DNA of 64,000 bases from Candidatus Latescibacterota bacterium (lineage in GTDB: Bacteria; Latescibacterota; UBA2968; UBA8231): the NCBI GenBank assembly GCA_963422735.1, contig OY730476.1:3808001-3872000 (forward strand). Direction: 5' to 3'. The position numbers and the translations under genes were made by a program. The notes under the pieces are model-generated. The model searched no databases, was not told the origin of the DNA, and saw only the letters and a program-made list of their open reading frames with translations. Within the stretch, counting starts at the first letter, position 1; each line of letters opens with the position of its first letter. Positions 32,650-32,766 of the stretch are shown here, one piece after another.

Positions 32650-32766
32650 ATGAAGCTCGAAATCGTATCGAAGCCTTTTGATGGTTATATGTCGCCGGCA
32701 GCGAAAGGCGGCGGCGGCGGTGGCGGCGGCTGTTGCTGCTGCTGCATTATCATATTTTTCTGTTGA
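32650..32766 (+). CDS. RiPP (TOMM/LAP) precursor peptide, 38 aa: MKLEIVSKPFDGYMSPAAKGGGGGGGGCCCCCIIIFFC
   Basis: AAGGAGG at 32635-32641, 8 nt before the ATG; Cys-rich core; lies directly upstream of the E1-like, SagB and YcaO genes. Confidence 0.92.
   Translation: MKLEIVSKPFDGYMSPAAKGGGGGGGGCCCCCIIIFFC

Follow-up and report, generated by a model that had tools for sequence, protein, structure and literature searches.

A small precursor gene with a conserved leader and a hypervariable cysteine-rich core in a putative azole-peptide cluster of Latescibacterota

Known azole-peptide systems and the Latescibacterota locus

Cytolysin clusters among the thiazole/oxazole-modified microcins (TOMMs) are described as encoding discrete C and D proteins, a dehydrogenase, an ATP-binding cassette (ABC) transporter and a CaaX-like protease, along with a precursor whose core consists of Gly followed by heterocyclizable residues (Cox et al. 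2015, PMC4603692). The DNA studied here, called the window, is a stretch of 64,000 nucleotides from a Candidatus Latescibacterota bacterium (assembly GCA_963422735.1, contig OY730476.1, positions 3,808,001 to 3,872,000 of the forward strand), whose uncultured phylum is reportedly rich in biosynthetic clusters (PMC9426513). It harbors a 38-codon open reading frame (ORF) that is read here, with some reserve, as probably the precursor (A) gene of a TOMM or linear azol(in)e-containing peptide (LAP) pathway, with a membrane-active polythiazole as the favored product.

The gene set described for cytolysin TOMMs resembling streptolysin S (SLS) (SagA-I, clostridiolysin S, listeriolysin S and the Borrelia SLS-like peptides) is common to the window cluster, as is a core opening with Gly and continuing with a Cys run. 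An earlier reading made from the sequence alone (the sequence-only reading) had compared the peptide with the SLS precursor, and this comparison fits the gene content published for cytolysin clusters (PMC4603692). The leader family differs, however, and the window cluster adds a second dehydrogenase-like paralogue (B'), a tetratricopeptide repeat (TPR) fusion, a TonB-dependent receptor and a TPR protein, in a host from a diderm uncultured phylum. Because the window's core reads Gly, five Cys and IIIFF, whereas the SLS-group description has Gly followed by at least 10 contiguous heterocyclizable residues, strict membership in the SLS-like group fails.

The Gly8-Cys5 arrangement also fits the Gly-linker-then-Cys-repeat precursor of faecalisin, an uncharacterized TOMM group of Enterococcus faecalis compared here by its description, and faecalisin clusters likewise carry discrete C and D proteins and ABC transporters (PMC4603692). 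Faecalisin precursors are described as nearly identical between strains, in contrast to the hypervariable Latescibacterota family, and the faecalisin D protein as nearest to that of microcin B17 (PMC4603692); no later characterization of faecalisin was found in the literature. The same source reports Gly- and Cys-rich precursors for anabaenasin and a Cys4-X-Cys4 motif for the gallolytisins (PMC4603692). As for microcin B17 (McbA/McbBCD), the window's B' protein gave a fold match to McbC and its C protein to E1-like enzymes with a RiPP (ribosomally made peptide with post-translational modification) recognition element (RRE), whereas the McbA core is Gly-rich with isolated Cys and Ser and no Cys run, and the system lacks a CPBP protease.

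The plantazolicin core has five contiguous azoles, Ile-Ile, more azoles and a C-terminal Phe, and is close to Cys5-IIIFF-Cys. Plantazolicin differs in using Cys, Thr and Ser, in its N-terminal dimethyl-Arg and in its Gram-positive producer, while the window cluster has no methyltransferase. Methanobactin operons, which make a RiPP metal carrier, resemble the window cluster in having their own TonB-dependent receptor. The chemistry encoded in the window is of the YcaO/E1/SagB kind, however, and in other phyla homologous clusters lack the receptor; none of the nine downstream genes was of the MbnB/MbnC type in Pfam and NCBIfam scans, which sets the cluster apart from methanobactin operons.

The sequence-only reading had called the architecture of the precursor unusual. 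The terminal Cys is found in the window's peptide only; the Gly-then-Cys layout is in print for faecalisin and for microcin B17, the Gly linker of McbA being variable (PMC4603692), and is not unprecedented. New are the leader family, the hypervariability within one genus, the conserved B' and the TPR/receptor add-on.

The precursor gene

The precursor ORF lies at 32650-32766 on the + strand of the window, with its ATG at 32650 and a TGA stop at 32764-32766. Its parts and the surrounding signals are the following.

32481..32496, + strand: sigma-54-type -24/-12 promoter-like element, TGGCACG-N4-TCGCT (from the sequence and its conservation)
32497..32649, + strand: 5' untranslated leader of about 150 nt including the Shine-Dalgarno (SD) sequence, very strongly conserved
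32650..32700, + strand: leader peptide, residues 1-17 (MKLEIVSKPFDGYMSPA), the conserved putative recognition part (mean pairwise identity 0.82)
32701..32730, + strand: variable spacer of A18, K19 and Gly8 (GGC/GGT trinucleotide repeat), its length and composition varying in the family
32731..32766, + strand: core of Cys5 (TGT/TGC repeat), IIIFF and a terminal Cys, with the TGA stop; 5-9 Cys in this part in all 37 relatives
32870..32910, + strand: long hairpin between the precursor and the C gene, without a U tract (centroid structure)

The translation is MKLEIVSKPFDGYMSPAAK-G8-C5-IIIFFC. Downstream of K19 the peptide contains no Ser, Thr or charged residue, and its last residue is Cys; re-translation gave exactly the leader, Gly8 run and Cys5-IIIFF-Cys core of the sequence-only reading. 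An SD sequence, AAGGAGG (32636-32642), lies 7 nt upstream of the ATG, and an alternative in-frame start, GTG, is found upstream at 32521. As the SD and ATG are conserved among relatives, while the in-frame sequence 5' of them differs between tandem copies, ATG 32650 was preferred over GTG 32521 and appears to be the start codon.

Both the Gly run and the Cys run are built of trinucleotide repeats: (GGC)4 GGT (GGC)3 TGT (TGC)4. Repeats of the GGC/TGC type are prone to in-frame length change, and Gly8 is best read as a spacer liable to slippage rather than as a functional element that is conserved.

In most of the aligned loci of the genus, the first precursor copy was preceded by the conserved promoter-like element, and the genome encodes one rpoN-type gene (PF04552). 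Aligned across 13 species, the 5' untranslated leader displayed long invariant blocks and 37 predicted pairs with 0 compensatory changes, and had no match in Rfam at E<=1. On the other side of the gene, the whole 171-nt region that holds the hairpin showed no significant folding (z = -1.39), and a scan 3' of the precursor found no terminator-like site on the + strand. No NCBIfam model matched the precursor peptide.

Homologous clusters and the precursor family in Latescibacterota

Of the genus's 30 other genomes, 20 have an orthologue of the window's YcaO protein (77-85% identical), and one further orthologue (62%) comes from a different family within the class; the search covered 168 genomes of the phylum, the window's own included, and turned up no others. 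For comparison, regions of about 15.5 kb were fetched at 20 related YcaO loci, and all 20 carried the nine downstream genes in the same order. Clusters of the genus sit between parE and a DEAD-box helicase gene. Both flanks differ in the outlier L044, so that the cluster can be delimited by the precursor on one side and the TPR gene on the other. A motif scan detected one to three tandem precursor homologues just 5' of the C gene in 19 loci, and the precursor of L044, which starts with GTG and has an SD of its own, emerged from an ORF listing, so that all 20 clusters have one. The outlier cluster also carries a second CPBP-family gene just 5' of its precursor (L044 1775-2425).

The small ORF adjoins genes for an E1-like C protein and a YcaO D cyclodehydratase, as is asked of a LAP precursor, in the same arrangement in 20/20 clusters, and the family combines a conserved leader with a variable core of the Cys/Ser/Thr-rich kind. 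A different conserved precursor in homologous clusters, which the sequence-only reading had named as the finding that would count against it, was looked for; the clusters carry homologues of the same precursor. Conserved position and homologues both support the proposal that the peptide is a RiPP precursor for the adjoining E1-like/YcaO/SagB machinery.

After addition of contigs L057 and L075 to the fetched loci, the precursor set counted 37 sequences from 23 loci, 36 of them distinct. The DNA pattern of the leader was found in only 1 metagenome contig. Over residues 1-17 the mean pairwise identity was 0.82 (630 pairs among the 36 distinct sequences), against 0.37 for the remainder. Five leader residues (K2, L3, S7, F10 and P16) were invariant in the 36 Latescibacterota copies while their codons varied: Ser7 was encoded by TCG (26), TCT (7), TCC (2) or TCA (1), and Pro16 by CCA (21) or CCG (15). 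The peptides therefore form a family that is conserved in the leader, hypervariable in the core and always tied to the same enzyme set.

Every one of the 37 precursors had 5-9 Cys, the longest run ranging from 2 to 9, and 14 of the 37 cores, the window's not among them, had His between Cys residues. The sequence-only reading had suggested that the Gly run may be a flexible ruler or the CPBP cleavage zone. At least four Gly directly upstream of the first Cys were found in only 2/37 precursors, however, and a Gly run was placed after the Cys run in 4/37; the distance from A17 to the first Cys spanned 4-22 residues (median 11), with a Gly-rich, acidic or basic composition. Since position, length and presence all vary, the Gly run is better regarded as one tolerated spacer than as a fixed ruler or cleavage zone. 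Together with the terminal Cys, found in the window's peptide only (1/37), and the IIIFF tail, the Gly8 run is peculiar to the source species and not a feature of the family.

That a GC-rich trinucleotide repeat opened this frame by chance, with the real precursor elsewhere, is extremely improbable. The ORF does have only 38 codons, half of them low-complexity repeat, and its kind is nearly always missed by gene callers. Against this stand homologues at the same position in 20/20 related clusters and in four phyla, a conserved SD and start codon, and synonymous changes at the invariant leader residues, and these comparisons show the ORF to be a real gene.

Distant clusters and wider distribution

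The C-protein alignment was scanned against one genome per species and gave 26 loci. Latescibacterota accounted for 21 of these, 20 at 78-86% C-protein identity and L068 (the same record as L044) at 64%; the remaining five, at 40-45%, came from metagenome-assembled genomes (MAGs), three of Thermoanaerobaculia, one of Herpetosiphonaceae and one of Nostoc. All five distant clusters run D, precursor, C, B', B. The Nostoc locus matched only as far as B; in the other four, CPBP comes next, then a further gene, an ABC ATPase lacking the TPR part and an ABC-2 permease. The distant ATPases matched the window's only up to residue 321. In the two loci scanned for it, the further gene between CPBP and ABC ATPase encodes an amidohydrolase (PF01979; L071 9444-10907, L072 5519-7192); it is absent from the Latescibacterota clusters.

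Distant precursors start with MKL (MRL in one) and have Y13 and S15 in register with the window's peptide; their leaders end in VVV(A/S)PGG or similar and are followed by Trp and Cys runs, or by Cys/His alternation. The suggestion that PFDGY is the RRE-binding motif was borne out in part. F10 was kept in 36/36 Latescibacterota copies, and Y13 in 32/36 (His in the other 4) and in the distant precursors, but D11 was variable and position 10 is Glu in the distant relatives.

A profile search of 1.84 billion representatives gave 74 relatives of the C protein at E<=1e-30 and 206 at E<=1e-10. Among 401 genomes sampled from the Thermoanaerobaculia phylum, the C protein of L071 matched none but its own, and YcaO searched against plasmids gave only distant TOMM clusters (best 2e-29). 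The distribution of the cluster family is sporadic. With a 48-residue relative as query, a collection of 5.8 billion proteins yielded 1 protein among 3 candidates; these precursors are almost always overlooked by gene callers. Literature searches returned no description of the precursor family, although the supplementary precursor tables of PMC4603692 may hold related sequences. Of the 21 Latescibacterota loci, three bear a Gemmatimonadota or Gemmatimonadetes label and the others that of Candidatus Latescibacterota. Near-identical clusters occurred in MAGs labelled Latescibacterota, Gemmatimonadota (Gemmatimonadetes) and Gammaproteobacteria, and the phylum labels of some of these MAGs are probably wrong.

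Enzymes and transport proteins of the cluster

Between the end of the precursor and the C gene lie 252 bp; the C gene is the first of nine co-oriented and closely spaced downstream genes.

33019..34131, + strand: C protein, an N-terminal three-strand/three-helix domain (RRE-like order) followed by an E1/ThiF-like domain (PF00899, 36 bits; AF2 model)
34156..34971, + strand: B', a divergent second nitroreductase-fold (azoline-oxidase-like) protein of 271 residues (predicted structure)
34975..35967, + strand: B, SagB-type flavin mononucleotide (FMN) dehydrogenase (PF00881, 76.8 bits; TIGR03605, 135 bits, above the 78.4 cut-off)
35960..36742, + strand: ABC-2 permease (PF01061, 78.7 bits)
36752..38215, + strand: D, YcaO cyclodehydratase (PF02624, 160 bits; C-terminus GPVPFP, PxPxP)
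38232..38960, + strand: CPBP (Rce1/CaaX-like) intramembrane protease, candidate leader peptidase or immunity protein (PF02517, 67 bits)
38948..40636, + strand: ABC ATPase with a fused C-terminal TPR domain (PF00005 and TPR families)
40643..42877, + strand: TonB-dependent receptor with an N-terminal CarboxypepD_reg domain (PF00593, PF13715)
42899..43684, + strand: TPR protein, paralogue of the TPR domain of the ABC ATPase (TPR families)

The AlphaFold model of the C protein, of intermediate confidence (pLDDT 60, with the final 110 residues poor), placed strands at residues 14-16, 21-24 and 30-33 and helices at 50-59, 66-71 and 77-92, followed by a Rossmann-like domain. Its top fold matches were MccB (E 4e-11), which was also its top sequence match among solved structures, and PaaA (E 5.9e-8). 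MccB and PaaA are enzymes that pair a peptide-binding N-terminal domain with an E1-like domain. Against the SagC family model TIGR03603 the C protein scored 50 bits, below the 187.65 cut-off. Co-folding of C residues 1-112 with the precursor, both given as alignments, scored 0.09 against a mark of 0.32, which speaks neither for nor against a complex.

The YcaO protein is the only one in the 4.95-Mb genome. Its nearest solved relatives were the cyanobactin heterocyclases MusD, LynD and TruD, and it scored 208 bits against TIGR03604, just under the 219.25 cut-off. A C-terminal PxPxP marks the azoline-forming type of YcaO; the window's YcaO ends in GPVPFP, and the SagB score identifies an FMN dehydrogenase for azole formation.

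B' had no Pfam hit and scored 22.5 bits against TIGR03605, and its model (pLDDT 67) matched the nitroreductase 3eo7 (E 2e-6) and McbC (6gos_C, E 5.6e-5). BLASTP found no similarity between B' and B. All 25 related clusters checked contain B'. Where B reads WKY, B' reads WRY, and B' is kept in this cluster type across four phyla; the B' frame of L027 has an in-frame stop at aligned codon 21. Residues 339-561 of the ABC ATPase matched orthologues of the TPR protein at 39-42% identity, and the match of the TonB-dependent receptor to the Plug domain was marginal (E 0.066, 14.2 bits against a 23.9 cut-off).

Proposed pathway and function

Judged from the families to which the encoded proteins belong, the conserved 17-residue leader would dock on the RRE-like N-terminal domain of the E1-like C protein, and the C protein and YcaO cyclodehydratase, using ATP, would convert the five adjacent Cys, possibly with the terminal Cys, to thiazolines. 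The SagB-type flavoprotein (FMN), perhaps paired with the divergent B', would then oxidize these to thiazoles. The CPBP protease may cut off the leader somewhere after the conserved SPA, and the ABC-2 transporter would export the product.

The function tentatively favored for such a product, by analogy with streptolysin S, listeriolysin S and plantazolicin, is that of a small, very hydrophobic polythiazole acting on membranes as an antagonist or cytolysin. A membrane-active antagonist is favored because the predicted Gly8-pentathiazole-IIIFF-thiazole would be very hydrophobic, because the cores diversify fast and because they come in tandem copies. For SLS, 11 residues of the poly-heterocyclizable region are reported to suffice for haemolysis, and Borrelia cores to be naturally short (PMC4513790). 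Listeriolysin S is described as staying on the producer membrane and depolarizing its targets on contact, and plantazolicin as depolarizing membranes (PMC8501752).

Several findings weigh against a membrane-active polythiazole from this pathway. The window's core has five contiguous heterocyclizable residues where the published cytolysin description asks for Gly and at least 10 (PMC4603692). At 50 bits the C protein is far from reaching the SagC cut-off of 187.65, the YcaO falls just short of that of the SagD type (208 against 219.25), and NCBIfam offers no model for the precursor. The TonB-dependent receptor and TPR proteins are fixed in the Latescibacterota cluster, for which an exported toxin has no obvious need, and His between Cys residues in 14/37 cores resembles a metal site.

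The last two points suggest another function, in which the peptide would be a secreted ligand recaptured through the cluster's own receptor, that is, a polythiazole (or thiazole/His) metal carrier or some other shared good, exported by the ABC-2 pump and handled by the TPR proteins. We consider this unlikely, although synteny links the receptor and TPR genes to the biosynthetic genes in 20/20 Latescibacterota clusters, including the differently placed L044, and although the Cys/His alternation recurs in the Nostoc and Thermoanaerobaculia precursors. One member of the genus without biosynthetic genes (G140) also retains an intact receptor-TPR pair at the same site. The window's core, however, has no His; the receptor is conserved like the enzymes (81-89%) while the cores are hypervariable, and its Plug domain is barely detectable. 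Homologous clusters do without a receptor, the Herpetosiphonaceae genome having 0 PF00593 and the Thermoanaerobaculia genome G168 none on the cluster contig, and no paper in the library searched joins YcaO, a TonB-dependent receptor and a metallophore. A more elaborate version, similarly doubtful, would have an SLS-type polythiazole pathway rewired in Latescibacterota to export and recapture, with TPR chaperones handing a hypervariable, often thiazole/His, ligand to a dedicated receptor, the ligand being a metal carrier or a private signal exploited by some non-producers. Only 2 of 10 non-producers keep the receptor, one copy being truncated, which counts against recapture and weakens the idea of cheaters that keep the receptor. 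If export and recapture were nonetheless true, it would be a new functional class for YcaO peptides.

The peptides might instead be strain-specific, pherotype-like signals, whose diversified cores would serve as private channels sensed by the outer-membrane receptor. A conserved leader with hypervariable cores within one genus and the multiple tandem variants of several clusters are compatible with such signals, and the sigma-54-type promoter and strongly conserved 5' leader suggest tight regulation. This is nevertheless improbable: sensor kinase, anti-sigma factor and regulator genes are absent from the conserved cluster, the receptor shows no visible co-variation with core type, and a set of FMN dehydrogenase, exporter and CPBP protease is described as typical of antagonistic LAPs (PMC4603692).

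The ORF adds an unannotated precursor family to the azole peptides, and the family's 37 natural cores on one conserved leader and enzyme set are a ready-made experiment on substrate tolerance. In two respects, the B' paralogue and the receptor/TPR addition, the cluster departs from the streptolysin S scheme in ways open to testing. These differences may reveal how a cell with two membranes deals with very hydrophobic polyazoles, or whether peptides of this kind can act as recaptured ligands.

Neighboring genes and alternative content of the site

On the other side of the precursor, a parE-/parC-like pair occupies 28352-32073 (- strand). A self-resistance role for these genes, as additional gyrase-type immunity genes, was considered and rejected: the genome has only two PF00521 genes, conservation of the pair stands at 93-96%, and the L044 cluster has no such pair beside it. 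The pair is the ordinary second type II topoisomerase of the genome, a housekeeping function and not immunity.

The YcaO orthologue is split into two adjacent frames in the single-contig genomes G132 (L022/L025) and G136 (L023/L024), which could reflect gene decay or an assembly error. Three members of the genus without YcaO carry at the parE-DEAD helicase site, in place of the biosynthetic genes, an alternative cassette of about 8 kb (L078 1914-10297; L076 about 6000-14147; L077 5815-14078). It encodes a transglutaminase-like/glycosyltransferase protein, a GT2-TPR protein, a stand-alone C39 peptidase, a 101-residue protein, another CPBP protease and a Yip1 protein. Two of the three cassette genomes retain a remnant of the 3' end of the ABC-ATPase-TPR gene together with the receptor and TPR genes.

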